A stretch of DNA of 44,107 nt from an uncultured Syntrophaceae bacterium (GCA_964353925.1 CAYGWV010000112.1:1-44107), one strand, 5' to 3'; shown: positions 1,384 to 20,404, numbered from the stretch's first letter. Translations and numbers: made by a program. Notes: generated from the letters alone by a model not told the origin.

Positions 1384-2487
1384 ATGGACAAAAAGATTAC
1401 AATCAAGGATATCGCCCGAAAGGCCAATGTTTCCCACACCACTGTCTCAAGGGCGCTAAATGATAAATCCCGTATTAAGAGCGAGACTAAGGAAAAGATT
1501 CTTTCCATTGCAAAGGAATTACACTACCGGCCAGATTTCATTGCCAGAAGTCTGGTGATGAGGCGAACCAAGACACTCGGTCTCGTCATCACGACCATTG
1601 CCAACCCCTTCTATACGGAACTCTCCCAAGGGATCGAATCAACGGCCATCCGTTTGGGGTACAATATCATTCTATGCAGTACCAATTATGACCTTTCAGC
1701 CGAGAAAAAGTATATTGATATGCTGCAAAGCAAGGGGGTAGACGGTATCATTTTCACTTCTGCCCATATGGGTGACCCCAATATCATTGGGTTGGCAGAA
1801 GAGGGATTTCCAATGATACTGGTCAATCGAAGAACCTATCATCCCACCGTGAGGAATAAAGTCGATTACGTCGGCGTGGATAATATCCGGGGTGGTTTTT
1901 TGGCCGTTGAGCACCTCATCAGACTTGGTCATGAACGGATCGGAGTGATCGGTGGATCGAGTGAATCCTCTGTTGGCTTTGAACGTTTGGAGGGCGGAAA
2001 GAAGGCACTCGCTGCTTACAATTTGGAAGTGATGGGTGATTATTTTTTGGAAGGGGATTTTTTAAGAGGATCCGGCTATCAGGGAGGCAAGAGATTTCTT
2101 GAAATGGACAAGCCTCCAACCGCGATTTTTGCTACGAACGACTACATGGCGTTAGGCACTTATCAGGCGCTCATGGAAGGGGGTATCAAGGTTCCAGAAG
2201 AAATCGCATTAATTGGGTTTAACGATATCGAATTCACGTCGATGAAAGGGATTGAATTGACAACGATCGGCCAAAAGAAGTATGAGATGGGTGCTCTGGC
2301 TGTGAAAACATTGGTTGAAAGGATTGAGGGCAGAAAGGGCGGGCCTCCGGTGGAAATGATTTTAGAGCCGGAACTGATCATTCGGAAGACTTGCGGTTTC
2401 CATCCGAAGGGTTATCAAATTGAATCTCAAAATAGGTATGGGCTGGATGATATCAAATCCGAAACACGAAATCCGAAAGTAATTTAG
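1384..2487 (+). CDS. LacI/GalR-family transcriptional regulator
   Basis: N-terminal HTH ITIKDIARKANVSHTTVSRALN followed by a periplasmic-binding-protein-like core (GLVITTIANPFY, IFATNDYMALG). ATG 1384 (MDKKITIKD) is preferred over the upstream ORF start at 1345. Confidence 0.85.
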   Translation: MDKKITIKDIARKANVSHTTVSRALNDKSRIKSETKEKILSIAKELHYRPDFIARSLVMRRTKTLGLVITTIANPFYTELSQGIESTAIRLGYNIILCSTNYDLSAEKKYIDMLQSKGVDGIIFTSAHMGDPNIIGLAEEGFPMILVNRRTYHPTVRNKVDYVGVDNIRGGFLAVEHLIRLGHERIGVIGGSSESSVGFERLEGGKKALAAYNLEVMGDYFLEGDFLRGSGYQGGKRFLEMDKPPTAIFATNDYMALGTYQALMEGGIKVPEEIALIGFNDIEFTSMKGIELTTIGQKKYEMGALAVKTLVERIEGRKGGPPVEMILEPELIIRKTCGFHPKGYQIESQNRYGLDDIKSETRNPKVI

Positions 2488-2544
2488 GGATTGCGAATTT
2501 AGGGATTAACGAATCAAATTCCTGAATTCCTCAATTCCTGAATC
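2485..2544. repeat. Intergenic imperfect palindrome built from AGGGATT/AATTCCT heptad-like units (family E)
   Basis: tagggattgcgaatttagggattaacgaatcaaattcctgaattcctcaattcctgaatc. The left arm is roughly complementary to the right arm. It overlaps the lacI-family stop codon. Confidence 0.5.
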
Positions 2545-2561
2545 AAAGCGTTGAGACTTAA

Positions 2562-3530
<969 letters not shown>

Positions 3531-6322: not shown

Positions 6323-6739
6323 ATGATGAAAATCGAACTAACGAGGCAAAACGTACACAATGAATTTACTAAGAAGGTGGAATTGATCAGCGGACAAAAC
6401 CTATTTGCCTGCTACCAGTGCGGGAATTGCACGGCGGGATGTCCAGTCGCCTTTGCCATGGAGGTGGGGCCACACCAGGTCATTCGGTACACGCTGCTCG
6501 GGTTGGAAGAGGAGGCCCTCGGAGTGAATACCTTCTGGCTTTGCGCCTCCTGCCTTCAATGCACGTCGAGGTGCCCCAAGGGAATCGATATTGCCAGGGT
6601 GATGGATGCATTGAGAATGGTGGTGTTGAGAAAGAAAGAGAGAAAAGACCACATTCAGATTCTTGAATTTCCAGAAGGATTTTTGGAGAAGCTGCCGCAA
6701 ATTGCATTCGTCAGCGGTTTTAGAAAATTTTTATCATAA
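6323..6739 (+). CDS. hdrC: HdrC-like 2x[4Fe-4S] ferredoxin subunit (copy 1)
   Basis: CYQCGNCTAGCP and CASCLQCTSRCPKGIDI motifs with the spacing typical of heterodisulfide reductase subunit C. It lies directly upstream of a CCG-domain protein. Confidence 0.8.
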   Translation: MMKIELTRQNVHNEFTKKVELISGQNLFACYQCGNCTAGCPVAFAMEVGPHQVIRYTLLGLEEEALGVNTFWLCASCLQCTSRCPKGIDIARVMDALRMVVLRKKERKDHIQILEFPEGFLEKLPQIAFVSGFRKFLS

Positions 6740-6894: not shown

Positions 6895-7764
6895 ATGGAA
6901 TATCTCTATTTTCCTGGGTGTACCCTTTATACCCAGGCGAAGAATTTTGATCAGACCGCTCGGAATTGTTCTCTTCTGCTCGGGTTTGAATTAAAGGAGC
7001 TCAAGAATTGGACCTGCTGCGGAGCGACCTTTCCTTTGGCTACCGATAACATTATGGCTCTTCTCCCTCCCTCAAGGATTCTGGCAACAGCGAGAGAAGA
7101 AGGGACTACCCTGACCACCCTCTGTGCCATCTGCTTTAACGTCATCAAAAGGACGAACCGATTGATTAAAGAAGATGGGGACAAGAGGGATAAGATCAAC
7201 AACTTTATTGAAAAAAATTACCAGGGAGATCTTCAAATCCTCCACTACTTAGAGATCCTTAAACAAAACGTCGGGTTTTCTCAACTTAAAGAAAAGACGA
7301 AGAAGCCGTTGGCGGGACTCAAAGCAGCGGCCTATTATGGATGCATGCTCCTCCGGCCATTTGAGGAGATGGGATTCGATGATAAGGAGAGGCCCACCCT
7401 GTTTGAGGATTTTCTTGAAGCATTGGGAGCAAAAGCGGTTGAATTTCCCTATAAGATCGAATGCTGTGGATCCTTTCAATCCGTAGGTTCACCCGATGTG
7501 GCGACAGAATGTGCCTATAAAATTCTCGGCTCGGCTCTAAAAAACGGGGCAGAGGCGATGGTTTCCACATGTCCGATGTGCACCTTCAACATCGACCACA
7601 AACAGTTTGATATCAAACAGAAATACTCAGATTTCAAACCCATCCCCGTATTCTATTTCACTCAACTGCTCGGAATGGCAATGGGACTCGATTATCAAAC
7701 TCTCGGATTTGAGCAAAATGCAGTCGATCCTTTGCCTCTCTTGAAAGAGAAAGGGCTTTTATAG
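6895..7764 (+). CDS. hdrB: HdrB-like subunit with two CCG cysteine-rich domains (copy 1)
   Basis: YFPGCT...NWTCCGATF (first CCG domain) and YYGCMLLRP...IECCGS...STCPMC (second CCG domain). Confidence 0.85.
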   Translation: MEYLYFPGCTLYTQAKNFDQTARNCSLLLGFELKELKNWTCCGATFPLATDNIMALLPPSRILATAREEGTTLTTLCAICFNVIKRTNRLIKEDGDKRDKINNFIEKNYQGDLQILHYLEILKQNVGFSQLKEKTKKPLAGLKAAAYYGCMLLRPFEEMGFDDKERPTLFEDFLEALGAKAVEFPYKIECCGSFQSVGSPDVATECAYKILGSALKNGAEAMVSTCPMCTFNIDHKQFDIKQKYSDFKPIPVFYFTQLLGMAMGLDYQTLGFEQNAVDPLPLLKEKGLL

Positions 7765-7826: not shown

Positions 7827-9209
7827 ATGAGTAAAGCGTTCGATGAAAACAGAGAAACCGACGCAGGGACTGCTCATAATGGTTTCATAAAGAGAGCGAT
7901 GGTGATCGGCGGGGGGATCGCCGGGATCTCTGCATCGATTGACCTGGGAAATGGGGGGTATGAAGTCGTCCTTGTGGAGAAGCTTCCATCCATCGGAGGC
8001 CGAATGCTTCAGCTTTCCGAAACCTTTCCCACCCTCGATTGTGCCCAGTGCACCTTAACTCCGAAAACGGTCGAGACGGGCCAGCATCCTCGCATCAGAC
8101 TTCTTACCTATTCTGAGGTGGACAGTGTTCAAGGAAAGGCCGGAGATTTTAGGGTAAGAATTCGAAGAAAAGCCGCCTATGTCGATTGGGAGAAATGCAC
8201 AGGCTGCGGCCTCTGTCAACAGAAATGCCCTTCGAAGAACCCATCTGAATTTGATCGGGGCATGGGACTGGGAAAAGCCATCCATACCTTATCGCCCCAG
8301 GCCGTTCCGAATAAACCTGTCATCAACCCTGCTCACTGCCGTTATTTTAAAGAAAAGAAATGCAGGGTATGTGAGAAGATCTGCCCGGTGGGAGCCATTG
8401 ATTACGAGCAGCAGGACCGTTTTGTAGAAGAAAGGGTAGGAGCCATCATTACGGCAGTGGGTTTTGATTTGATCCCTAAAGAAAGTTTTGGTGAGTATGG
8501 ATATGGTGACGTTCCGGATGTGATCGATGGCCTTGCCTTCGAGAGGCTCAATTCTGCATCTGGACCGACCACGGGGGAGATTCGTAGACCTTCAGACGGC
8601 AAAATTCCTAAAGAGGTGGTTTTCATTCAATGTACGGGGTCAAGAGATCCTGAGCGTTACATGCCTTACTGCTCACGGGTTTGCTGCATGTACACGGCCA
8701 AGCATGCCCGGCTCTATAAGCATAAGGTCCACGATGGGCAGGCCTATATCTTTTATATGGATATTCGCTCGACAGGAAAAGGGTATGAGGAGTTCATCCA
8801 GCAGGGAATGGAAGAAGAAGGGATCCTTTATTTGAGGGGGAGGGTTTCCCGAGTCTTTCGAGATGGAGAGAAGGTGGTCGTCTGGGGTGTGGACACATTG
8901 ACAGGGAAGAAAGTTGAGATTTCTGCGGATATGGTGGTATTAGCCACAGCGCTTATTCCCCAGAAGGAGTCGAAGGATCTCGCCGGAAAGTTGGGGATCA
9001 AAACAGATGAGCACGGTTTCTTAACAGAAGCCCAGAGAAAATTACGGCCTGTTGAAACGGATATCGATGGAATCTATATCGCAGGCTGTGCCCAGGGGCC
9101 CAAAGATATTGCCGATGCAGTGGCCCACGCCAATGCCGCAGCGAGCAAGGTGCAAGGGCTGTTCGCAAGACATAGAAACAACAATGGGAATAATGGAATA
9201 ATGGAATGA
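7827..9209 (+). CDS. hdrA: Short HdrA/QmoA-type FAD + FeS flavoprotein. Has the FAD domain with inserted ferredoxin domain but lacks the N-terminal Cys domain and the C-terminal ferredoxin domain.
   Basis: MVIGGGIAGISAS, TFPTLDCAQCTLTPK, CTGCGLCQQKCP, CRVCEKICP, CSRVCCMYTAKHA. 460 aa. Start is uncertain (ATG 7827 or ATG 7899). The tail ...NNNGNNGIME is encoded by repeat D1. Confidence 0.85.
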   Translation: MSKAFDENRETDAGTAHNGFIKRAMVIGGGIAGISASIDLGNGGYEVVLVEKLPSIGGRMLQLSETFPTLDCAQCTLTPKTVETGQHPRIRLLTYSEVDSVQGKAGDFRVRIRRKAAYVDWEKCTGCGLCQQKCPSKNPSEFDRGMGLGKAIHTLSPQAVPNKPVINPAHCRYFKEKKCRVCEKICPVGAIDYEQQDRFVEERVGAIITAVGFDLIPKESFGEYGYGDVPDVIDGLAFERLNSASGPTTGEIRRPSDGKIPKEVVFIQCTGSRDPERYMPYCSRVCCMYTAKHARLYKHKVHDGQAYIFYMDIRSTGKGYEEFIQQGMEEEGILYLRGRVSRVFRDGEKVVVWGVDTLTGKKVEISADMVVLATALIPQKESKDLAGKLGIKTDEHGFLTEAQRKLRPVETDIDGIYIAGCAQGPKDIADAVAHANAAASKVQGLFARHRNNNGNNGIME

Positions 9210-9292
9210 TGGGTCTTGAGGAATTTGGTTTAGTAATTATTTTTTATGCCTTCCTCAGTATTTCATTATTCCATCATTCCAACATTCCATTG
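9182..9292. repeat. Family D long hairpin of (GGAATRATG)n units, copy 1
   Basis: caatgggaataatggaataatggaatgatgg (9182-9212) against cattattccatcattccaacattccattg (9264-9292), with an inner cttgaggaa/ttcctcag pair. The left arm overlaps the hdrA1 stop codon. Confidence 0.8.
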
Positions 9293-9337
9293 ACGAATGA
9301 AGGATAAGAAAAGGCCAATTGAGTTTTGAGAGGTTCC

Positions 9338-11290
9338 ATGCGCCGATTGGGAGTCTTTATCTGCCATTGTGGAGTCAATATTGCCGGGAGCGTCGATGTC
9401 AAATCGGTCGCCGAAAAGATAGGTGGGGTCGAAGACGTCGCCCACAGCACCGATTACATTTACATGTGCTCTGAACCAGGACAGCAAATGATTCGCGAGG
9501 CCGTTCGCGAGAAAGGCTTGGGAGGAGTGGTCGTGGCCTGTTGCTCGCCCAACATGCATGAGAATACCTTTCGGAAGGCCGTCAAATCTCAAAGGATGAA
9601 TCCCTATCTCTGTGAGATTGCGAATATTCGAGAACAGTGTAGCTGGGTCCATCAGAAGGAGAAGGGTGAAGCGACCCAAAAGGCAGAAGAGATCATCCAG
9701 GCCACCCTTGAAAAGGTGAGAAGGAACGAGTCGTTGGAGGCCATTGCCGTGGCCATCGACCGAAAGGTATTGGTGGTCGGCGGGGGAATTGCCGGAATCA
9801 CTGCCTCCCTCGATCTCGCTGAAGGAGGTTATGACGTCATTCTTGTGGAGAGGGAAGCTGCCCTGGGGGGACACATGGCCCAATTGTCAAGAACCTTTCC
9901 GGATCTCGATCCTGCTTCCAGTGGTATCCTCTCAAAAGCATCGGAAGTGGAGAAGCATCCAAAGATCCATCTTCACTGTTATTCTGAATTAGAAGAGGCG
10001 AAAGGGTATGTGGGGAATTTCGAGTTGGTGGTCCGTAGAAAAGCCACTTCCGTGGATGGAGGAAAATGCACGGGATGCGGCCTCTGCATAGAGAATTGTC
10101 CTGCAGAATATGTTTCGGAGTTTGAGAGGGGGATGGGACTGCGAAAAGCGATTGATACCCTGTACCTTTCGAGTATCCCCAATAAGCCTGTGATCGATCG
10201 TGGACATTGCCGATATTTTTTAGATGGAAGTTGTCATCGATGTGAAGAGATTTGTCCTGAGAAGGCCATCGATCTCAAACAGGAAGATGAACGGATTGCA
10301 GAGAAGGTGGGAGCCATTGTGGTTGCAACGGGATATGAGCTCTATCCCAAGGAACAATTAGGAGAGTATGGATACGGTGAAATCCCGGACGTGATCGATG
10401 GTCTTGCCTTTGAACGAATGCTTTCGCCCGAGGGTCCCACGAAAGGGAAAATCCTTCGGCCTTCTGATGGAAAGGTGCCGAGGGAGATGGTCTTTATACA
10501 GTGTGTGGCTTCAAGGGATCCAGACCGGTATATGCCTTACTGCTCGAGGGTTTGCTGTATGTACACGGCCAAGCATGCCAAAATTTATAAGGAACAGGTT
10601 CCGGACGGGCAGCCCTATATCTTTTATATGGATATTCGCTCGGACTGTAAAGGCTACGAGGAGTTCCTTCAGAAGACCATTGAGGAGAAAGGGCTTCTCT
10701 ATCTCAGGGGCCGCGTCTCCAAAGTTTTTCAGGACGATGGAAGGGTGAGGGTATTAGGAGTAGACACGCTGACCGGGAAAATGGTTGAAGTCGCAGCCGA
10801 TATGGTCGTCCTGGCCACAGCCATGGTTCCGAGCAAAGGAGTAAAAGATTTGGCTGCCAAACTGAGGGCGACCGTGGATCGACATGGTTTCTTGACAGAG
10901 GCCCATATCAAGCTCTATCCTGTGGAAAGCTCGACCAAAGGGATCTACCTTGCAGGGTGTGGCCAGAGTCCTAAAGATATTTCAGACACTGTGTCTCAGG
11001 CCTCGGCGACGGCCAGTAAAATTCAGGCTTTGCTTTCCGCGGACAAACTTCTTCAAGATCCTTTAATCGCATTTGTCGATGAAGGAATTTGCAGTGGATG
11101 TGGAATCTGTGTAGAAATCTGTCCCTATGAAGCAAGAGAGATGGATTCGCATCGCGGAGTTTCAATGGTTCAGAGCGCACTCTGCCAGGGATGCGGGGCT
11201 TGCATTGCTTCTTGTCCCAACAATGCCTGTGAGTTGAGAAACGGATCCGCAAACCAGGTCCTTCGGGTGGTCGATACGTTTGCTTCATAA
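9338..11290 (+). CDS. hdrA: Full-length HdrA-type flavoprotein (N-terminal Cys domain, FAD domain with inserted ferredoxin, C-terminal 2x[4Fe-4S] domain)
   Basis: GVFICHCGVNIAG...VVACCSPNMHE, VLVVGGGIAGITAS, CTGCGLCIENCP, CHRCEEICP, CSRVCCMYTAKHA, CSGCGICVEICP, CQGCGACIASCP. ATG 9338 follows GAGAGG; the ORF is open from TTG 9326. Confidence 0.9.
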   Translation: MRRLGVFICHCGVNIAGSVDVKSVAEKIGGVEDVAHSTDYIYMCSEPGQQMIREAVREKGLGGVVVACCSPNMHENTFRKAVKSQRMNPYLCEIANIREQCSWVHQKEKGEATQKAEEIIQATLEKVRRNESLEAIAVAIDRKVLVVGGGIAGITASLDLAEGGYDVILVEREAALGGHMAQLSRTFPDLDPASSGILSKASEVEKHPKIHLHCYSELEEAKGYVGNFELVVRRKATSVDGGKCTGCGLCIENCPAEYVSEFERGMGLRKAIDTLYLSSIPNKPVIDRGHCRYFLDGSCHRCEEICPEKAIDLKQEDERIAEKVGAIVVATGYELYPKEQLGEYGYGEIPDVIDGLAFERMLSPEGPTKGKILRPSDGKVPREMVFIQCVASRDPDRYMPYCSRVCCMYTAKHAKIYKEQVPDGQPYIFYMDIRSDCKGYEEFLQKTIEEKGLLYLRGRVSKVFQDDGRVRVLGVDTLTGKMVEVAADMVVLATAMVPSKGVKDLAAKLRATVDRHGFLTEAHIKLYPVESSTKGIYLAGCGQSPKDISDTVSQASATASKIQALLSADKLLQDPLIAFVDEGICSGCGICVEICPYEAREMDSHRGVSMVQSALCQGCGACIASCPNNACELRNGSANQVLRVVDTFAS

Positions 11291-11354
11291 AGCGCTGAGC
11301 GTCTGCTGGCGGTAAGTAGGCTTGGGATCTTTTATAATTAAGGAGGAGATAAAG

Positions 11355-11915
11355 TTGGAAACCGTGACCAGCGTGGGGAAAGTGGATTCCTCTTTCCTAG
11401 AAGAGGCAAAACAGAAGAGCGGGGAGGATCTCAGCCTCTGCTATCAGTGCTTGAAGTGTACAGCAGGGTGCCCGACTGCGCCTTATATGGATATTCGGCC
11501 TAACAGTATTATCCGGATGATCCAGATGGGGATGAAAAAAGAAGTTTTGGGAAGCAGTGCCATCTGGTTTTGCGTTTACTGTCAGACCTGCGGAACTCGC
11601 TGTCCGAATAAGATCCACATTGGAATCCTCATGGATGCCTTAAGGGAGATGGCCATGGAAGAGGGGATTCCGGCAAAAGAGAAGAATATTCATCTCTTCC
11701 ATGAAGCCTTTATTCAAAGCGTCCGAAGAGGGGGAAGGGCTCATGAGGTAACCATGTTGATGGACTATGTGCTCAGGAGCAGGGACTTGATGACAGATTC
11801 ACTTATCCCGGGCATCAGGCTCTTTTTGAAGGGCAAATTCCCCTTACTCCCCAGCTTCATCAAGGGGAGACAGGAGATCAAACGAATTTTTGAAAGGTGT
11901 GAACGAAAAAAATGA
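11355..11915 (+). CDS. hdrC: HdrC-like 2x[4Fe-4S] subunit (copy 2) with a longer C-terminal tail
   Basis: CYQCLKCTAGCP and CVYCQTCGTRCPNKI. The ORF is open from 11322, but AAGGAGGA at 11340-11347 favours TTG 11355 (or GTG 11364). Confidence 0.75.
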   Translation: METVTSVGKVDSSFLEEAKQKSGEDLSLCYQCLKCTAGCPTAPYMDIRPNSIIRMIQMGMKKEVLGSSAIWFCVYCQTCGTRCPNKIHIGILMDALREMAMEEGIPAKEKNIHLFHEAFIQSVRRGGRAHEVTMLMDYVLRSRDLMTDSLIPGIRLFLKGKFPLLPSFIKGRQEIKRIFERCERKK

Positions 11916-11921
11916 GAAGCC

Positions 11922-12033
11922 GGAACACTGGAACGGTGGAATATTGGAATAATGTTTTTTTCTGAAAGAAATTGTCATCCGTCGTTCGATTATTCAGTGT
12001 TTTTTGACACTATTCCATCATTCCAGAATTTCC
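11922..12033. repeat. Family D long hairpin, copy 2
   Basis: ggaacactggaacggtggaatattggaataatg (11922-11954) against cactattccatcattccagaatttcc (12008-12033). Confidence 0.8.
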
Positions 12034-12048
12034 TTTTGGAGGCCAAGA

Positions 12049-12894
12049 ATGAGGTTCTCTTACTTTCCAGGCTGTACAGATCACTCGTCGTCTTTGGAAT
12101 ATGGGTTATCAACCCATGAGGTTTTTAAGACCCTGGGGGTGGAGTTGGTAGAGATCGAGGATTGGAACTGTTGTGGAGCTGCAGCGACCCATAGTCTCAA
12201 TCGTCTCCTTTCTCTCTGTCTTCCAGCCAGGAATATCTCCAAAGCGCAGTCAGCCCAGGCAGGACCTCTGGTCGTTCCCTGTGCCGGGTGTTTTAGCTAT
12301 CTGAAAAGGACCGAGCATGTCCTTAAAAACAATGAGGCGGAGCGAAAAGAGATTGAAGAGATCGTCGGGTTTACCTACCAGCCTTCTCTTGAAATTTTGG
12401 CTTTAATGGATGTCATCCTGAATCGAATTGGCTTGGAGAGAGTTCAAGAAAAGGTGAAGAGGCGTTTAAAAGGATTAAAGGCCGCCTGTTATTATGGATG
12501 TGCATTGGTTCGACATCCGAAAATTACTCAGTTGGATGATCCGGAGAATCCTCAATATCTGGACCGGTTGGTGACGGCCCTGGGCGCCCAGCCGGTGGAG
12601 TGGTCTTATAAAGTGGATTGTTGCGGTGCGGACTTGGCCATGACTTATGGAAAGGTGGTCAATACGATGGTGGGGAGAATTGTGTCCATGGCCAAGGAAG
12701 CAGGGGCTCAATGTATCGTCACCTCTTGCGGCCTCTGCCAGATGAACCTGGAGATGAGGCAGGACCTGGGTCTCCCCGTTTTTTACTTCACTGAATTGAT
12801 GGGAGTGGCCTTTGATGTTGAAAAGAAAGAGAACTGGTGGAAGAAGCATTTGATTTCTCCAAAGCCACTTCTTGAATCAATGGGGCTGGTATAG
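12049..12894 (+). CDS. hdrB: HdrB-like subunit with two CCG domains (copy 2)
   Basis: YFPGCT...DWNCCGAAA, VVPCAGC, YYGCALVRHP, VDCCGA, TSCGLCQMN. GGAGG lies 7 nt before ATG 12049. The upstream part of ORF 12004.. is repeat D2. Confidence 0.85.
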   Translation: MRFSYFPGCTDHSSSLEYGLSTHEVFKTLGVELVEIEDWNCCGAAATHSLNRLLSLCLPARNISKAQSAQAGPLVVPCAGCFSYLKRTEHVLKNNEAERKEIEEIVGFTYQPSLEILALMDVILNRIGLERVQEKVKRRLKGLKAACYYGCALVRHPKITQLDDPENPQYLDRLVTALGAQPVEWSYKVDCCGADLAMTYGKVVNTMVGRIVSMAKEAGAQCIVTSCGLCQMNLEMRQDLGLPVFYFTELMGVAFDVEKKENWWKKHLISPKPLLESMGLV

Positions 12895-12967: not shown

Positions 12968-15900
12968 ATGGGACAAGGCAAAACAAGAGGTGACAAATCA
13001 TCGGCGTTGGTGATTGGTGCAGGCATTGCTGGAATGCAATCTGCACTTCTGTTAGCAGAGATGGGAACAAAGGTTTTTCTCTTAGAGCAGGGACCGGCGA
13101 TTGGAGGTTATTTCCCGTTGCTGGATAAGACCTTTCCCACCAACTCCTGTGGAGTCTGCTTCATGAGCCCCACTCCTCCTGCCTTCTGCCCTATTTATGA
13201 ATGTCATCTTCATGACAATATCGAATTGTTGCCCTATTCAGAAGTGGTGAAGGTGGAGGGGCAAGGGGGAGATTTCAATGTCGCCGTCGTCCGGAAGCCT
13301 CGGTTCGTTGATCCAAAACGCTGCACCCTTTGTGAAGCCTGTATAAAGGCTTGTCCCGTGGAGGTGGAGAGAGAATTTGGGGGTGGTTTGGAGAGACGAA
13401 AGGCGATCTACTTTCCCTATCCTCAGGCCATCCCGCACAGCTTCGTGATTGATCCAAGAACCTGTACCCGATGTGGAGAATGTGTGAAGGTCTGTAGCCC
13501 CGGGGCGATCGATCTCAATATGAAAGAAGAACATGAGACGATCGAGGCTGGAGCCATCCTTTTGGGGTACGGGTTTGAGCCCTTTCTGGCGCAGAGAAAA
13601 GGGGAGTATGGCTTTGGTAGATACGAGAATGTGATGACGAGCATTCAGTTTGAGAGATTGCTCTCCACATCGAGTCCGACACAGGGGCTGCCCATTCGGG
13701 TTTCCGACGGGAAAAGGATGGAGAGGATTGCGTTCATCCAGTGCGTGGGGTCAAGGGATCCCTCCTGCGGTCAGGATCACTGTTCCACCATTTGCTGCAT
13801 GTACGCTACTAAACAGGCCATGATTGCAAAAGACAGGTCCCCCGGTCTTGGAGTAGCCTTCTTCTACATGGATATTCGACCGATGGGGAAGGATTACGAA
13901 CGATATTATGAGAGGGCAAAGACCGAGTACGGGATTGAATATATCCGGAGTGCCATCTCCTCGATCAAAGAACTTCAGCAGACGAAAAATCTTCTGATCA
14001 CCCATGTCAAAGAGGACGGGACCTTTGAAGAGAGGGAGTTCGATGCCGTCGTCCTTTCCTTGGGTTTTACCCCACCGCAGACCATAAAAGATTCAGCCCA
14101 AAAAATGGGTCTCCGATTGAATCAACAAGGGTTTTGCCAGACGGACGAGTTCAATCCTGCTCAAACCTCCGTGAGCGGAATTTTTGTGGGAGGGGCATTT
14201 CGGGGCCCCAGGGATATTCCTGAGACGGTTGTAGAAGGGTCGAGTGCTGCGGCATTGGCTGCATCCTTTCTCGTCCCCAATCGTCTTCCTCAGCCTCTCA
14301 AAGAGTATCCCATGGAAGGGGCTTTGGGTGACGAGATTCCAAAAATAGGGGTCTTCCTCTGCCATTGCGGTGAGGAGTTGAAGAAGAGCCTATTTATTTC
14401 TGACCTCGTCAGCGGGGCAAAGCAGCTGAGGGAGGTGGTCCATGTTGAAGAGTTCGGTTTGGCTTGCCTTCCAGAAGATTTGGATCTCATCAAAAAGAGG
14501 ATTGGGGAACAGGGTCTCAACCGAATCGTCATCGCCGGTTGTTCCCATCGGGAGATTCGAGGAGCTATGGAGGAGATGGCAAAAGGAATGGGTTTCAATC
14601 CCTACCTCATCGAATATGCCAACATAAGGGAACAATGTGCCTTTGTCCATTTAGATTACCCCAAATTGGCCACAGAGAAGGCGATGGCTCTCATCAAGAT
14701 GGCTGTGGAAAAGGCGAAGCGATTTCAACCCATTCGAAAAGGGAAACAGAAGATCGATAAAAAGGGATTGGTGGTAGGCGGAGGCCTCGCCGGCATGACG
14801 GCATCCCTGCAGCTGGCTCGGCAGGGATACGAGATTCATTTGATCGAGAAAGAGAAAGAACTGGGAGGGAACTTAAAGGAATCCTTCTATACGTTGAAGG
14901 GATCAAATCCCCAAGACCTTTTAAATAAACTCATTAAACAGGTGGAAGGCAATGACTCCATCCACCTCTATTCCGAGACAGAGGTTCTTGGATTCGAAAA
15001 GAAAAATGGGCACTATCAAACAAAGATTCGTCATCGGGATGAGGAGAAGATCATTGACCACGGGGCATTAATCCTGGCCACCGGTGGGAAAGAAGTGATT
15101 CCCAAAGAATACCTTTATGGAGAAGACACCCGGGTCATGACCCAAAGACAGTTGGAGAGGATGATCCATTCAAATGATAAAAGTTTAAAGGATATTCATT
15201 CGTTGGTGATGATTCAATGTGTCGGTTCCAGAGATGAAGACCATCCCTATTGCAGTCGCATTTGTTGCGGGCATGCAGTGAAGAATGCTTTGAAGTTAAA
15301 GGAAAAAGATCCAGGGATGAATATCTACGTGCTCTACCGAGATGTGAGGACCTACGGATTTTATGAGACCTATTACCACGAGGCGAGAGAGAAGGGTGTG
15401 ATCTTCATTCGATATGACCTGGAGAATAAACCGAAGGTTGATCTCCAGGAAGGAAGCCTTCAGGTCTCCCTGTTCGATCCTGCGATGAATGGTCCGATCG
15501 TTCTCCCGGCCGATCGTGTCATCCTGAGCGCTGGCATCGAGTCCAGTGACCATCAGGAGTTGGCGAGAATTTTCGATGTGGATTTGAATCCGGATGGTTT
15601 TTTCATGGAGGCCAATCCCAAATCGGCTCCTCTTGATTCGGTGGACCGTGGAAAATTCTTCTGTGGCCTCTGCCATTCCCCTAATTTTATTGAAGATACC
15701 ATCTCCCAGGGAAATGCCGCTGCTGCCAGAGCGGGTGCACTTCTGGCCAAGGAGGCTGTGGAAGAAAAGGCCTATTTGGCCTATGTAATTAAGAGGCTCT
15801 GCTGCGGGTGTGGCCTATGTGTCAGCGTTTGCCCGTATGATGCCAGAGTCTTGAATGAAGAGGAAGGTAAGGCTGAAGTGATTGGTTCGCTCTGTCAGGG

Positions 15901-16000
15901 GTGCGGCTCCTGCGTCATCGCTTGCCGGAATGGAGCCTCCCAGCAGCGTAACTTTGAGAAAGATTTGAATCTGGCTGCCCTGGATGCGGTCATTGATTAG
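12968..16000 (+). CDS. hdrA: 1010-aa tandem fusion of two HdrA-type modules (QmoA-like module, then an N-domain + FAD module + C-terminal ferredoxin domain)
   Basis: Module 1: LVIGAGIAGMQSA, TFPTNSCGVCFMSP, CTLCEACIKACP, CTRCGECVKVCSP, CSTICCMYATK. Linker and N-domain: GVFLCHCGEEL...IAGCSHRE. Module 2: LVVGGGLAGMTAS, CSRICCGHAVK (no inserted ferredoxin domain). C-terminus: CCGCGLCVSVCP, CQGCGSCVIACRNG. Confidence 0.85.
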   Translation: MGQGKTRGDKSSALVIGAGIAGMQSALLLAEMGTKVFLLEQGPAIGGYFPLLDKTFPTNSCGVCFMSPTPPAFCPIYECHLHDNIELLPYSEVVKVEGQGGDFNVAVVRKPRFVDPKRCTLCEACIKACPVEVEREFGGGLERRKAIYFPYPQAIPHSFVIDPRTCTRCGECVKVCSPGAIDLNMKEEHETIEAGAILLGYGFEPFLAQRKGEYGFGRYENVMTSIQFERLLSTSSPTQGLPIRVSDGKRMERIAFIQCVGSRDPSCGQDHCSTICCMYATKQAMIAKDRSPGLGVAFFYMDIRPMGKDYERYYERAKTEYGIEYIRSAISSIKELQQTKNLLITHVKEDGTFEEREFDAVVLSLGFTPPQTIKDSAQKMGLRLNQQGFCQTDEFNPAQTSVSGIFVGGAFRGPRDIPETVVEGSSAAALAASFLVPNRLPQPLKEYPMEGALGDEIPKIGVFLCHCGEELKKSLFISDLVSGAKQLREVVHVEEFGLACLPEDLDLIKKRIGEQGLNRIVIAGCSHREIRGAMEEMAKGMGFNPYLIEYANIREQCAFVHLDYPKLATEKAMALIKMAVEKAKRFQPIRKGKQKIDKKGLVVGGGLAGMTASLQLARQGYEIHLIEKEKELGGNLKESFYTLKGSNPQDLLNKLIKQVEGNDSIHLYSETEVLGFEKKNGHYQTKIRHRDEEKIIDHGALILATGGKEVIPKEYLYGEDTRVMTQRQLERMIHSNDKSLKDIHSLVMIQCVGSRDEDHPYCSRICCGHAVKNALKLKEKDPGMNIYVLYRDVRTYGFYETYYHEAREKGVIFIRYDLENKPKVDLQEGSLQVSLFDPAMNGPIVLPADRVILSAGIESSDHQELARIFDVDLNPDGFFMEANPKSAPLDSVDRGKFFCGLCHSPNFIEDTISQGNAAAARAGALLAKEAVEEKAYLAYVIKRLCCGCGLCVSVCPYDARVLNEEEGKAEVIGSLCQGCGSCVIACRNGASQQRNFEKDLNLAALDAVID

Positions 16001-16132: not shown

Positions 16133-16555
16133 ATGGCTGAGTTTGAACCGAGGATTGTAGCCTTTTTATGCCACTGGTGCACTTATACGGGAGCGGATCT
16201 CGCCGGGACGACTCGACAACAGTATCCTCCCAATATCCGCGTTATCCATTTGATGTGCTCGGGAGCTGTGGACTCCATCTATGTGCTCAAAGCCCTTATT
16301 GACGGGGCGGATGGCGTGTTGATCGGTGGTTGCCATCCAGGAGACTGTCATTATCAGACAGGAAATTACAAGGCCCGGAGAAGAGTTGCCATTCTAAAAG
16401 GCATCCTTCAACAAATGGGTTATACGGATGATCGAATCTGGCTCAAGTGGATCAGTGCCAGTGAAGGAAAACTCTATGCAGACACGGTGACCAAGATGGT
16501 AGATGAATTAAAGAAGATGGGTCCAAACCCAATGAAACAACTCTGGAACGCCTAA
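16133..16555 (+). CDS. mvhD: MvhD / FlpD-type [2Fe-2S] electron-transfer subunit (methyl-viologen-reducing hydrogenase delta subunit family)
   Basis: IVAFLCHWCTYTGADLAG...IRVIHLMCSGAVD...GADGVLIGGCHPGDCHYQTGN matches the family signature. AGGAGG precedes ATG 16133. Confidence 0.9.
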   Translation: MAEFEPRIVAFLCHWCTYTGADLAGTTRQQYPPNIRVIHLMCSGAVDSIYVLKALIDGADGVLIGGCHPGDCHYQTGNYKARRRVAILKGILQQMGYTDDRIWLKWISASEGKLYADTVTKMVDELKKMGPNPMKQLWNA

Positions 16556-16632: not shown

Positions 16633-17781
16633 ATGGCGAAGAAGGCAGCGGTTAAAGTGATCGATGGAAAAACAGATGAGGCGATCATTGGCTTTTTGAA
16701 ATCCCTTTTAAAAGAGGGAATGGTAGATGCGATTCTTATACCCAAACCCCTCCCTTCACAGGATGGTTTCGTACAAACATTAATTCGAGATCCAGAAAAG
16801 TTAAATGGAGTGTGTGTCCTTTCACCCACCATGCCCGTTCAGTCTGCGAGGGTCATCTCCAATCTCAGTGTTAAAAATCTGGGGAAGAAAGTCGCTGCCG
16901 TATTAAAAGCCTGTGAGATACGGGCCGCTGTTGAATTGGCAAAATTTCTCCAGGTCAAACTGGACAACGTATGTTTTATCGGTATCGATTGCCCTGGAAC
17001 CTTTGAGGTAGCCGATTATGCAAAGATGGTACAGGAGGGAAAAGGAGGGGGGGCTTTGGCAAAAGAGTTGCTCAAAGGCATGGAGAAGGGTGAAATCTCC
17101 CCGCCCGCTGGGTATGCTTTCCGGACCGCTTGTCAGATGTGTGAATATCCTGTCCCTCAAGCGGATATCCGTCTTAAGCTTTTTGGCTACCAGGGAGATC
17201 AAGCGATCGGCATTGAGATCGGGGATAAATTGGAAAAGGAGATCGAAGAGAAGGGGATCTTTTCTTTTTTAGAAAGTGAACCGGCTTCGAGGAGCGAGGT
17301 GGTTAATAAAGTCATCGCTGAGAGGACAAAGAAGCGAGATGCCCTTTTCCAGGAATTCAAAGGTATGGCCAAAGATCTTCAAGCCTTTTTAGACCGTTTT
17401 TCCACCTGTATTCGTTGCCACAATTGTATGGTGGCCTGTCCGATTTGTTATTGTAAAGAGTGTGTTTTCAAGACGGCGGTCTTTGAGCACGATGGAGATC
17501 AATTCCTAAGGTGGGCCGATCGAAAGGGTGAAATCCGAATGCCAACCGACACGCTCATCTTCCATCTCATCCGGATGTCCCACATGGTGACTTCTTGCAT
17601 CGGCTGCGGACTTTGTGACAGTGCCTGCCCGAGCCGATTGCCTGTCGCCACACTCTTTCGGAGTGTGGGAGATAAAATTCAGAAGATGCTCAATTATATT
17701 CCGGGAAAAGATGTAAAAGAGGTACCCCCTGTGGCCACCTTCAAAGAAGACGAATTGAAGATTGAATCTGGAGCCCTATAA
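16633..17781 (+). CDS. FrhB/FdhB-like (F420 hydrogenase/dehydrogenase beta-type) domain protein with a C-terminal 2x[4Fe-4S] domain
   Basis: C-terminal CIRCHNCMVACPICYC and CIGCGLCDSACP motifs. The N-terminal 230 aa (GFLKSLLKEGMVDAILIP..., VLKACEIRAAVELAK, FIGIDCPG) resemble the FrhB/FdhB fold by recalled pattern only and need HMM confirmation. Confidence 0.55.
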   Translation: MAKKAAVKVIDGKTDEAIIGFLKSLLKEGMVDAILIPKPLPSQDGFVQTLIRDPEKLNGVCVLSPTMPVQSARVISNLSVKNLGKKVAAVLKACEIRAAVELAKFLQVKLDNVCFIGIDCPGTFEVADYAKMVQEGKGGGALAKELLKGMEKGEISPPAGYAFRTACQMCEYPVPQADIRLKLFGYQGDQAIGIEIGDKLEKEIEEKGIFSFLESEPASRSEVVNKVIAERTKKRDALFQEFKGMAKDLQAFLDRFSTCIRCHNCMVACPICYCKECVFKTAVFEHDGDQFLRWADRKGEIRMPTDTLIFHLIRMSHMVTSCIGCGLCDSACPSRLPVATLFRSVGDKIQKMLNYIPGKDVKEVPPVATFKEDELKIESGAL

Positions 17782-18641: not shown

Positions 18642-18709
18642 GCATGGAGCAGAGGGCATAGGGTAGTGATAATCTTTTGGCTCTATGCTCTTTGCTCTAT
18701 GCCCTATGC
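18642..18709. repeat. Family B inverted repeat, copy 2
   Basis: gcatggagcagagggcataggg (18642-18663) against ctctatgctctttgctctatgccctatgc (18681-18709). The right arm accounts for the spurious N-terminal extension of ORF 18677... Confidence 0.8.
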
Positions 18710-18730
18710 CGGATAGAAGTTGGAGGAATC

Positions 18731-20404
18731 ATGCCATACACAAGGGAATTGAAAGAACTGATCAAAAAGGTTGAGGCAACACGACCTGGACGAGTCGAAA
18801 AAAAGAAGAGGGGAGAAGAGTTTCATCTTCTCTCTTTGAAAGAGAGGCAGGAACGACTGGAGAAATACCATCCCGATTTCAAGGCGGGATCAAAGAGGGA
18901 GATCCGGGTCGGCCCCAGTAAAGGCTACGCTATCTCTCCTGAGATCGTGGATCTTCTCGAAGCCAGAAGCAGACTGAACCCTGATTTGATCGATTTAAAC
19001 AAAATTGCGTACGAGACGGATGTCCTCATCATTGGCGGAGGAGGAGCAGGGACAGCGGCTGCACTGATGGTCCAGGAACATGGCGTGCGGGTGACGATTG
19101 CGACTAAGCTCAGGCACGGTGATGCAAATACGATGATGGCCGAAGGGGGAATTCAGGCAGCCTCCAAGGGAGAGAAGGATTCACCCTACTTCCATTACCT
19201 TGATGTGTTGGGCGGAGGCCATTTTAAGAATGTTCCGGAACTGGCCTGCACCCTTGTGACAGAGGCCCCGAAGATACATGCCTGGCTCGAAAACCTCGGG
19301 TGTATGTTTACAAAATTCCCGGATGGCCGTTTGAAAGCGCTTCATGGGGGAGGTACCTGCCGGAAACGGATGCACTATGCGGCGGACATTACGGGTGCAG
19401 AAATCATGCGAACCCTAAGGGATGAAGCAAGGAACCGAGTTCAGGACATCAAGGTCCTTGAATTTTCTCCAGCCGTAGAGTTGATCTTGAATGAGCACGG
19501 CCATTGTGCCGGCGCCGTCCTTTATAACCTCGAGACAGAAGAGTATTTTGTGGTCAAGGCAAAGGCAGTGGTGATGGCGACGGGTGGTTCGGGAAGACTC
19601 CACATTCAAGGATTCATGACCACCAATCATTATGGCGCGACGGGAGACGGTCTTGTGATGGGTTACCGGGCGGGAGTGAAGGTCTGTTTTCTCCACACGG
19701 TTCAGTACCATCCCACAGGGGTTGCCTTTCCGGAGCAGGCGGAAGGTATTCTGATCACAGAGAAGTTCAGGGGAGCAGGCGCCAATGTGCTGAATATCGA
19801 TGGTGAACAGTTCGTCAACGAACGGGAACCGAGGGACATAGAATCCTCATGCTTTATCCGGGAATGCACGCAGGTCGGGAAGGGAATCCCAACTCCCGCC
19901 GGAAAAATGGGGATATGGTTGGATTCCCCGATGATCGACATGCTGATGGGCGAAGGGGCCGTCAAGCGCGAGTTCCCCGGCAAATATATTCTTCTGAAGC
20001 GCTTCGGCATCGACATCTCGAAGGAGCCCATGCTGGTTTACCCAACCCTCCACTACCAGAATGGCGGATTGGAATACAATAACAGGTGCGAAACCTCCAT
20101 CCCGGGGCTTTTTTCCTCAGGCGAGGTTTCGGGAGGAGTCCATGGCGAAAACCGGCTGATGGGAAACTCCCTACTTGATGTCTGCGTCTTTGGAAGAATC
20201 GGAGGAGTGAGTGCGGCACTCTATGTCAAGGAGAAGGCAAAAGACGGGAGGCTAACCTTGGATCATGTCCGGAGATATCACAAGGAGTTGGAGGAGGCAG
20301 GGATCATCACAGACCGCGTGGCGCCGATGTTGCTCCCCGATTATTCCAATCCAAAAGTTCGGGAGCGTCAGCTGACCGCCCATTATGTGGGGACCATCCG
20401 GTAA
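18731..20404 (+). CDS. frdA: Fumarate reductase/succinate dehydrogenase flavoprotein-like subunit (FrdA/TfrA type, probably non-covalent FAD) with an N-terminal extension of about 100 aa
   Basis: DVLIIGGGGAGTAAA, MMAEGGIQAA (no His at the covalent-FAD position), QYHPTG, ITEKFRGAGANVLN, HYQNGGL, GENRLMGNSLLDVCVFGR. GGAGGA precedes ATG 18731. Confidence 0.8.
   Translation: MPYTRELKELIKKVEATRPGRVEKKKRGEEFHLLSLKERQERLEKYHPDFKAGSKREIRVGPSKGYAISPEIVDLLEARSRLNPDLIDLNKIAYETDVLIIGGGGAGTAAALMVQEHGVRVTIATKLRHGDANTMMAEGGIQAASKGEKDSPYFHYLDVLGGGHFKNVPELACTLVTEAPKIHAWLENLGCMFTKFPDGRLKALHGGGTCRKRMHYAADITGAEIMRTLRDEARNRVQDIKVLEFSPAVELILNEHGHCAGAVLYNLETEEYFVVKAKAVVMATGGSGRLHIQGFMTTNHYGATGDGLVMGYRAGVKVCFLHTVQYHPTGVAFPEQAEGILITEKFRGAGANVLNIDGEQFVNEREPRDIESSCFIRECTQVGKGIPTPAGKMGIWLDSPMIDMLMGEGAVKREFPGKYILLKRFGIDISKEPMLVYPTLHYQNGGLEYNNRCETSIPGLFSSGEVSGGVHGENRLMGNSLLDVCVFGRIGGVSAALYVKEKAKDGRLTLDHVRRYHKELEEAGIITDRVAPMLLPDYSNPKVRERQLTAHYVGTIR

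Follow-up and report, generated by a model that had tools for sequence, protein, structure and literature searches.

Why would a bacterium keep two unequal HdrA genes side by side, one short and stripped of accessory domains, the other full-length and devoid of a conserved Cys pair? Anaerobic energy metabolism relies on HdrA as its flavin-based electron-bifurcating core, and to our knowledge little biochemistry is available on the rewiring of its symmetric dimer in non-methanogens. The question is raised by a 44,107-nucleotide stretch of DNA (hereafter the window, with positions counted from its first letter) from an uncultured Syntrophaceae bacterium (GCA_964353925.1, CAYGWV010000112.1:1-44107), a Syntrophales-type host. 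There, hdrA1 (7827..9209, + strand) encodes a short HdrA of 460 amino acids (aa), A1, and hdrA2 (9338..11290, + strand) a full-length one of 650 aa, A2, both recognised by alignment to 5ODC_A, the HdrA of Methanothermococcus thermolithotrophicus. A preliminary description, made from the sequence alone, had proposed that the two proteins form an obligate heterodimer with divided cofactor sites, and that patches of identical DNA in their genes point to a recent duplication or to ongoing gene conversion. We conclude, with a probability of about 0.78, that hdrA1 and hdrA2 are ancient, co-inherited paralogues whose products most likely form one asymmetric heterodimer where methanogen Hdr has a symmetric (HdrA)2 core.

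Domain anatomy and the lost Cys pair

A1 aligns to residues 141-561 of 5ODC_A (E 4e-129), and consists of a thioredoxin reductase (TrxR)-like FAD domain with an inserted ferredoxin domain; the N-terminal Cys-rich domain and the C-terminal 2x[4Fe-4S] domain are both missing. A2 aligns to residues 5-643 (E 2e-181), and its N-terminal Cys-rich, FAD, inserted ferredoxin and C-terminal 2x[4Fe-4S] domains are all present. On both proteins the preliminary description was right. The frame of hdrA2 opens at TTG 9326 (654 aa, 9326-11290), and ATG 9338 is probably the start, because it is preceded by GAGAGG and orthologues begin with MKKLGVF or MRKLGVF.

The division of parts between the two proteins is only partial. 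Both have the GxGxxG FAD fold (VIGGGIAG in A1, VVGGGIAG in A2), with matches to Pfam Pyr_redox_2 and FAD_oxidored. Sequence and 5ODC alignment place the TrxR-domain [4Fe-4S] motif of A1, CTGSRDPERYMPYCSRVCC, at 8631..8705 (+ strand); it is followed by MYTAKH, in which Lys292 corresponds to HdrA Lys409. The CxGxRDx6-8CSxxCC cluster motif together with the CCMYxxK Lys reads CTGSRDPERYMPYCSRVCCMYTAK in A1 and CVASRDPDRYMPYCSRVCCMYTAK in A2, and is kept in 42 of 42 orthologues, these being the 21 A1/A2 pairs extracted from Syntrophia genomes (the window's genome is designated G000). Both proteins also have the inserted ferredoxin domain (CTGCGLCxxxCP and CRYFxxxxCxxCExICP), the second motif with a 5-residue insertion relative to 5ODC. 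Neither is a canonical full-length HdrA, A1 being without both extra domains and A2 without both Cys; the best scores against the NCBIfam HdrA equivalogs (NF041778, NF041891, NF040770) were 481 bits for A1 and 714 for A2, for cut-offs of 1100-1400. CoM-S-S-CoB is unlikely to be their substrate.

The Cys pair is what A2 has lost. Counting along the HMMER alignment to 5ODC, Cys72 and Cys75 of the A1 motif TFPTLDCAQCTLTPK (8022..8066, + strand, from aa 66) correspond to HdrA Cys194 and Cys197. At these positions A2 has Pro196 and Ser199, within TFPDLDPASSGILSK (9893..9937, + strand); the preliminary description had located this stretch one base off, at about 9892-9936, and correctly noted that both Cys are gone. 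In the crystal structure of Mvh-Hdr, as summarised by Chadwick et al., Cys197 of one HdrA serves as a ligand to the N-terminal [4Fe-4S] cluster in the other (PMC9012536). In the Hdr of M. maripaludis, Sec197 pairs with a cysteine and may act with it as a redox relay that links FAD to the A3 cluster (PMC13518236, 2026). In BamE, the fused HdrA of class II benzoyl-CoA reductase, cryo-EM finds the equivalent Cys59 and Cys62 joined in a disulfide close to the bifurcating FAD and to the E3 cluster as it approaches (bioRxiv 10.64898/2026.04.10.717634). The literature thus assigns the pair a cofactor or redox role, as the heterodimer proposal supposes. Because the lost pair is Cys194/197, and Cys197 ligates the N-terminal cluster of the partner, a heterodimer is well supported.

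The two sites have evolved differently. All 21 orthologues have the A1 motif TFPTLDCAQCTLTPK unchanged, and the equivalent stretch of A2 is hypervariable in the window's own family (PASSG, PAFSD, PALEG, PAPGG and others), as expected of a site freed from constraint. In the proposal of an obligate heterodimer with divided cofactor sites, the pairing is therefore strengthened by the Cys197 mapping and the invariant A1 motif, whereas the division has to be narrowed to some of the sites.

The same position is unusual in a third HdrA of this genome, a full-length protein encoded on the - strand of another contig (C80, ~1887-3149), which reads TFPTLDCSA-TGA-ILTPR. Since the in-frame TGA sits exactly at the Cys197 position, this solo HdrA probably carries a selenocysteine there. 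This one-TGA HdrA was also seen in six relatives.

Orthologous pairs and a probable asymmetric dimer

Of the 26 relatives that carry A1, 25 have an A2 orthologue next to it; these span three families, and the 26th has no A2-type match. A wider survey covered 80 loci, with one genome per species in the search. In every short/long tandem found, the short gene, with the Cys pair, comes first and the long gene, which has no such pair, second, in metagenome-assembled genomes (MAGs) labelled Chloroflexia, Anaerolineae, Spirochaetales, Pseudomonadota and Thermodesulfobacteriota. The solo HdrAs of the survey (~60) all have both extra domains and both Cys. A second short/long tandem family, 43-46% identical to A2, follows the same rule in 8 of 8 related genomes sampled (L122-L128 and L121, in G017, G021, G008, G004, G024, G022, G007 and G027): its short gene reads TFPTLDCS(A/S)C and its long gene is without both Cys. 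It was not found in the window's genome, which is 69% complete. Comparison of orthologous loci in related genomes thus bears out, and extends, the complementarity first described for this locus, and since the complementary losses recur in every short/long tandem examined, they go far beyond chance.

An intermediate stage survives. In two sister clades, six genomes in all (L034-L036 and L038-L040, in G019, G020, G029, G021, G025 and G028), A1 still has an N-terminal domain. This domain is 25-28% identical to that of A2 and evolves fast, with 39% identity between two species of one genus; four of its five conserved Cys are kept (CxC, C, C). The A2 proteins of these genomes have Cys197 in five cases (DARC or DAAC, with Cys194 already lost) and His in the sixth, G025. 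Conversely, A2 Cys197 was found in 0 of 29 pairs whose A1 is without the N-domain, a set that includes the second tandem family and MAGs labelled Chloroflexia, Anaerolineae, Spirochaetales and others.

The pair is part of a larger conserved module, hdrC1-hdrB1-A1-A2-hdrC2-hdrB2-A3, which is syntenic in 21 Syntrophia genomes and in MAGs of other phylum labels; hdrC1 lies 5' of A1 in all loci that extend that far. Its last gene, hdrA3 (12968..16000, + strand), was recognised by its two HdrA-type stretches and its position, and encodes a 1010-aa fused double HdrA. The units of A3 follow the order of A1 and A2. Its first unit, without an N-domain, carries the Cys pair in TFPTNSCGVCF; next come an HdrA N-domain (IGVFLCHCGEE), another FAD unit and, at the C-terminus, a 2x[4Fe-4S] domain. 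The second FAD unit is without the Cys pair and seemingly without the inserted ferredoxin domain. We also observed that one relative, G002, has a second copy of the locus (L057, contig C26 ~28.9-37.7 kb) about 40 kb from the first; in this copy two TAA stops break A1; A2, with 93% identity to that of the window, and the fused HdrA look intact.

Could A1 and A2 instead form separate homodimers, (A1)2-HdrB1C1 and (A2)2-HdrB2C2, the N-terminal cluster of A2 having a non-Cys ligand or being absent? Two full hdrCB pairs do stand beside the hdrA genes, a short homodimeric HdrA exists (PDB 6TJR), and FAD, the TrxR cluster and the Lys are present in both proteins. Yet homodimers leave unexplained that Cys197 of A2 is lost only where A1 is without the N-domain, and that A1 keeps an invariant Cys pair without an N-domain of its own to serve. 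Nor do they account for the adjacency of the two genes in 25 of the 26 A1-bearing relatives, or for the fusion of such units into a single chain, as in A3 of the window and in the BamE structure. We consider separate homodimers improbable.

An asymmetric A1-A2 dimer would work as follows. The sequences show the anatomy, homology, residue mapping, synteny and age of the split; the physical complex, the ligation in trans and the choice of the bifurcating FAD are inferred from them. A2 would supply the sole N-terminal [4Fe-4S] domain and the sole C-terminal 2x[4Fe-4S] input domain, as a mobile arm, and Cys75 of A1 would act in trans as fourth ligand or redox partner of the A2 N-terminal cluster, beside the A1 FAD. 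FAD, the TrxR-domain cluster and the inserted ferredoxin domain would be retained on both subunits. By analogy with BamE, the A1 FAD, next to the Cys pair, would probably be the bifurcating one, and A2 mainly an adaptor or input unit. Cys194/197 of A2 would once have served an N-domain on A1, and would have drifted away because the A1 N-domain to be served no longer exists. The Syntrophia series would record this transition, first with a fast-evolving N-domain on A1 and Cys197 on A2, later with both gone.

Several points weigh against the heterodimer. The evidence for pairing A1 with A2 is comparative and indirect. The co-variation between loss of the A1 N-domain and loss of A2 Cys197, though flawless in its direction, is suggestive and not statistically proven, because on the tree of pairs each trait needs only two changes, which leaves 2 independent contrasts (sign test p = 0.5). 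Statistically proven co-evolution of the two losses was dropped for this reason; a count of at least 4 independent losses, taken from the A1 tree, was also set aside, as it assumes that a 130-residue domain cannot be regained. A short HdrA is able to homodimerise, as does sHdrA (PDB 6TJR), which A1 matches. The split into catalytic and adaptor units may not hold, and the analogy with BamE may be incomplete, because A2 keeps the CCMYTAK Lys where the non-bifurcating unit of BamE has Gln. Finally, two HdrBC pairs flank A1A2, and either A1A2 with both pairs, or C1B1A1A2 plus C2B2A3-MvhD, may be the actual arrangement. Two parallel asymmetric modules, one split (C1B1-A1-A2) and one fused (C2B2-A3-MvhD), would be slightly more likely on the analogy with BamE, since BamE and BamD are 1:1.

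Age of the split and the identical DNA runs

The adjacency of hdrA1 and hdrA2 on the same strand, and the short runs of identical DNA that they share, could suggest a recent tandem duplication followed by fast complementary degeneration; a recent duplication was one of the two explanations put forward in the preliminary description. The sequences are far too different for this. Over 426 aligned codons, A1 and A2 have 61% amino-acid and 63% nucleotide identity; the nonsynonymous distance (dN) is 0.30, and the synonymous distance (dS) is saturated and not computable. In a tree with solo HdrAs, A1 falls among the canonical HdrAs and A2 forms a clade of its own, so that the two are not sisters and belong to separate deep clades. 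Moreover, orthologous pairs exist in 25 related genomes (three families) and in MAGs of other phylum labels, that is, across the class and beyond. On the strength of these identities, the saturated dS and the tree, a recent duplication is excluded for practical purposes.

The identical runs themselves are as first described. A 29-nt run has exactly two copies in the window, at 8743-8771 and 10614-10642, and so has a 21-nt run, which starts at 8688 (to 8708) in hdrA1 and at 10559 in hdrA2; its A1 copy overlaps the TrxR-domain cluster motif. Conservation at the protein level is highest in the segment where the runs fall (CSRVCCMYTAKHA, YIFYMDIRS). Within (A/P)YIFYMDIRS, the peptide specified by the 29-nt run, the codons TAT, ATG, GAT and CGC are near-fixed in all orthologues and just four wobble sites vary.

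Synonymous identity is not uniform along the two genes. It is raised in a segment at 8661..8837 of hdrA1 (+ strand, aa 279-337), paired with 10532-10708 of hdrA2, which holds the 29-nt run: the same codon is used at 31 of 41 identical residues, compared to a fraction of 0.43 elsewhere in the gene and 0.46 in cross-genome pairs. The latter, 420 comparisons of A1 from one genome with A2 from another, served as null for a scan statistic that used a position-specific baseline. They are a fair null because, without conversion, all A1-A2 comparisons span equal time. Runs of at least 29 nt occur at the same places in 9 of the 420 cross-genome pairs (2.1%), and runs of at least 21 nt in 15%; A1 of G002 and A2 of G000 share runs of 33 and 24 nt, longer than those within genomes. 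The runs of the window thus lie no further out than the upper tail of what conservation produces, and the 29-nt run was accordingly rejected as stand-alone proof of conversion. The 29-nt and 21-nt runs are mostly amino-acid identity combined with shared codon preference.

Against this account stands the synonymous peak of G000 (aa 279-318, z = 3.9), which lies above 420 of 420 cross-genome pairs at a window of W = 40 codons, so that some conversion may have taken place. Short RecA-type exchanges could recur in A1 aa 279-340 and partly homogenise synonymous sites; this would be compatible with a heterodimer, and competes only with conservation plus codon bias as the origin of the DNA runs. The empirical p of the G000 scan is 0.005 at W = 60. 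Two other genomes have an excess in the same segment, G017 (p = 0.002, reached by 0 of 420 pairs at W = 60) and G016 (p = 0.017), with no matching cross-genome rise for either. The dS of the segment is 0.83 in G000 and 0.77 in G017, and saturated in the rest of the gene. Individual codons also fit: A2 of G000 uses GTT (Val285) and GCC (Ala294), the codons of A1, and not the ATT and GCA of its closest A2 orthologues, and A1 of G000 and G001 carry TTT (Phe309) as in A2.

Other features of the segment speak against recent or continuing exchange. The rise is common to cross-genome pairs of the clade formed by G000, G001, G002, G003 and G006 (0.585 off the diagonal vs 0.615 on it), a clade block that the rest of the gene does not show (0.416 vs 0.395). 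In G001, of the same genus, the two genes use the same codon at only 24 of 40 sites, and dS over the segment is 1.76. Paralogues of different genomes, even of different families, share runs that reach 29 nt or more. The apparent directions are mixed, and diagnostic A1/A2 residues break the segment, so that any conversion tracts would be ~20-40 nt long. With a 20-codon window the p value for G000 is 0.086, and the whole signal is carried by ~58 codons only. Recurrent exchange is thus possible rather than probable, and the same doubt applies to an old short conversion tract in the ancestor of the genus-level clade, with an independent one in G017. Of the ongoing gene conversion first proposed, a local synonymous excess remains, confined to one 40-codon segment; it is common to sister genomes, and cross-genome runs are equally long.

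The strongest within-genome synonymous excess was observed in G017 (L033, A1 aa ~262-392), with 30 of 40 codons and z up to 4.4, above all cross-genome pairs. Within this family of genes, it is the likeliest place for a genuine tract of gene conversion.

Gene context and comparison with known systems

Upstream of A1, hdrC1 (6323..6739, + strand) encodes a 138-aa HdrC-like subunit with 2x[4Fe-4S] (Pfam Fer4_8/Fer4_17), which scores 73 bits against NCBIfam TIGR03290 HdrC, under the model cut-off. It is followed by hdrB1 (6895..7764, + strand), which encodes a 289-aa HdrB/SdhE-like subunit with two Pfam CCG domains; its scores, 193 bits with TIGR03288 HdrB and 188 bits with MFR_anch_SdhE, are both under cut-off. 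Downstream of A2 come hdrC2 (11322..11915, + strand, 197 aa) and hdrB2 (12004..12894, + strand, 296 aa), assigned by family match and by synteny, hdrC2 lying directly 3' of A2, and then the fused HdrA. All seven genes, hdrC1, hdrB1, hdrA1, hdrA2, hdrC2, hdrB2 and the fused HdrA gene, are on the + strand. The next open reading frame (ORF), at 16133..16555 (+ strand, 140 aa), reads FLCHWC...GCHPGDCHY and is, by motif recognition in its translation alone, a putative MvhD/FlpD-like protein. It may be an adaptor that brings electrons to the C-terminal ferredoxin domains. After it, a 382-aa Fe-S protein is encoded at 16633-17781.

The spacer between A1 and A2 is 116-128 nt long, depending on the A2 start, and both genes are on one strand. 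It contains a long imperfect hairpin (9182..9292, + strand; fold -46.9 kcal/mol, z -3.2), which is AT-rich and whose left arm, GGAATAATGGAATAATGGAATGATGG, encodes the odd C-terminal tail of A1, NNNGNNGIME. As it has no T-run, the hairpin is not an intrinsic terminator, and a terminator separating A1 from A2 was rejected. From hdrB1 to hdrC2, no intrinsic terminator was found, save a weak 5-pair stem inside A2. Spacer length ranges from ~3 to 280 nt in relatives, so that the hairpin is probably not conserved.

The module is preceded by genes for pyruvate carboxylase, malate dehydrogenase, fumarase and UbiA, and followed by genes for an Fe-S protein, for an FrdB-like protein and, ~11 kb downstream of A1 (18677-20404), for a flavoprotein that resembles the soluble fumarate reductase subunit TfrA; a LacI regulator is also encoded in the window. 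TfrA-like orthologues (57-65% identity) are present in 5 of 5 other-lineage genomes checked that carry the tandem. In at least one of these, a distant MAG (G033, contig C19 45665-47341), the gene lies ~11 kb downstream on the same contig, as in the window. Judged from the genes around it, this context suggests a soluble Hdr-linked fumarate reductase. Tentatively, hdrC1B1-A1-A2 and hdrC2B2-A3-mvhD, with an FrhB-like protein and the FrdB/TfrA-like fumarate reductase, could form a flavin-based electron-bifurcating (or confurcating) fumarate reductase/succinate dehydrogenase, a bacterial machine that would have been widely transferred. If so, it would offer syntrophs and anaerobic Chloroflexi a soluble way past the hard succinate/fumarate step.

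What the locus adds is a clean bacterial case of the complementary-pair design, conserved with a fixed seven-gene module across distant lineages, and an evolutionary intermediate that supports the logic of a ligand provided in trans. If our reading of it is correct, the Syntrophia series is a rare living record of a symmetric bifurcating dimer turning asymmetric. The locus gives experimenters a defined target, with the role of A1 Cys75 and the fumarate role as its two aspects. The concept is unchanged, since it was already published, and the gene-conversion angle is minor.

Among known systems, QmoA and QmoB of sulfate reducers are likewise a short HdrA-like flavoprotein and a long one from neighbouring genes, and QmoB has at its C-terminus an MvhD-like domain in place of a plain 2x[4Fe-4S] one. 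No membrane-anchored QmoC accompanies the pair of the window: hdrC1 and hdrC2 match positions 2-97 of the 360-position qmoC model, that is, its soluble N-terminal part only, with 64-68 bits for a cut-off of 300. A Qmo identity was rejected on this absence of a QmoC-type membrane subunit. No aprBA was found among the family-scanned ORFs.

The HdrA of the sHdr system of the sulfur oxidiser Hyphomicrobium denitrificans (6TJR) is, like A1, short and without N-terminal or C-terminal domains, and the gene order C1-B1-A...C2-B2 is common to both systems. It is a 349-aa protein to which only A1 residues 206-442 align (E 5e-42). Unlike sHdrA, A1 still contains the ferredoxin insert and has a full-length HdrA encoded after it; genes for lipoate-binding or sulfur-carrier proteins were not seen in the window.

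With MvhAGD-HdrABC of Methanothermococcus thermolithotrophicus (5ODC; related structures 8RVU, 7BKB and 9SFI), A1 and A2 have in common the FAD fold, the cluster motif, Lys409 and the ferredoxin insert. The solved Hdr enzymes are symmetric HdrA homodimers, with all domains and both Cys (or Sec) in each subunit, whereas the window splits these parts over two genes.

A likeness is also found with BamE of Geobacter metallireducens and the fused HdrA of Moorella MetFV-HdrABC-MvhD, asymmetric double HdrAs like A1/A2. As proposed for the window, BamE has an N-terminal unit with the Cys pair beside the bifurcating FAD, another unit with accessory Fe-S domains, and an MvhD-like adaptor. The second FAD unit of BamE is non-bifurcating, with Gln where A2 keeps Lys, and BamE pairs with a single HdrBC-like BamD, whereas the window has two HdrBC pairs. 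The BamE and Moorella proteins are one polypeptide; the pair of the window is two genes, and A3 is its fused counterpart. The unit order of A3 is the same as reported for BamE, and is reversed relative to HdrA3/4 of anaerobic methanotrophic archaea (ANME) in Chadwick et al. (PMC9012536).

A published precedent comes from these archaea. In the tandem HdrA5/6 and HdrA12/13 of ANME, and in fused HdrAs including that of Moorella, one unit bears the N-domain but no Cys197, and its partner bears Cys197 but no N-domain (PMC9012536). Chadwick et al. (PLoS Biol, 2022) infer from this a symmetry-breaking HdrA heterodimer, so that the idea of a heterodimer is already known for tandem and fused HdrAs alike. 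A search of a preprint on HdrA evolution (10.1101/2024.09.26.615249) for tandem pairs returned no relevant passage. The window shares with the ANME tandems the adjacency of the hdrA genes, the complementary distribution of N-domain and Cys197 and the heterodimer that it suggests: A2 has the N-domain and Ser at position 197, and A1 has Cys75 at position 197 and no N-domain. It differs in being bacterial (Syntrophales and other lineages), with the short, Cys-bearing gene first, and in its surroundings, which comprise an hdrCB pair on either side, a fused HdrA and mvhD after these, and an adjoining TfrA-like fumarate reductase. Unlike in the ANME tandems, an intermediate stage survives in sister families, in which A1 has a degenerating N-domain and A2 still has Cys197. 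This intermediate stage, together with the synteny of a bacterial pair and its module, is what is new here.

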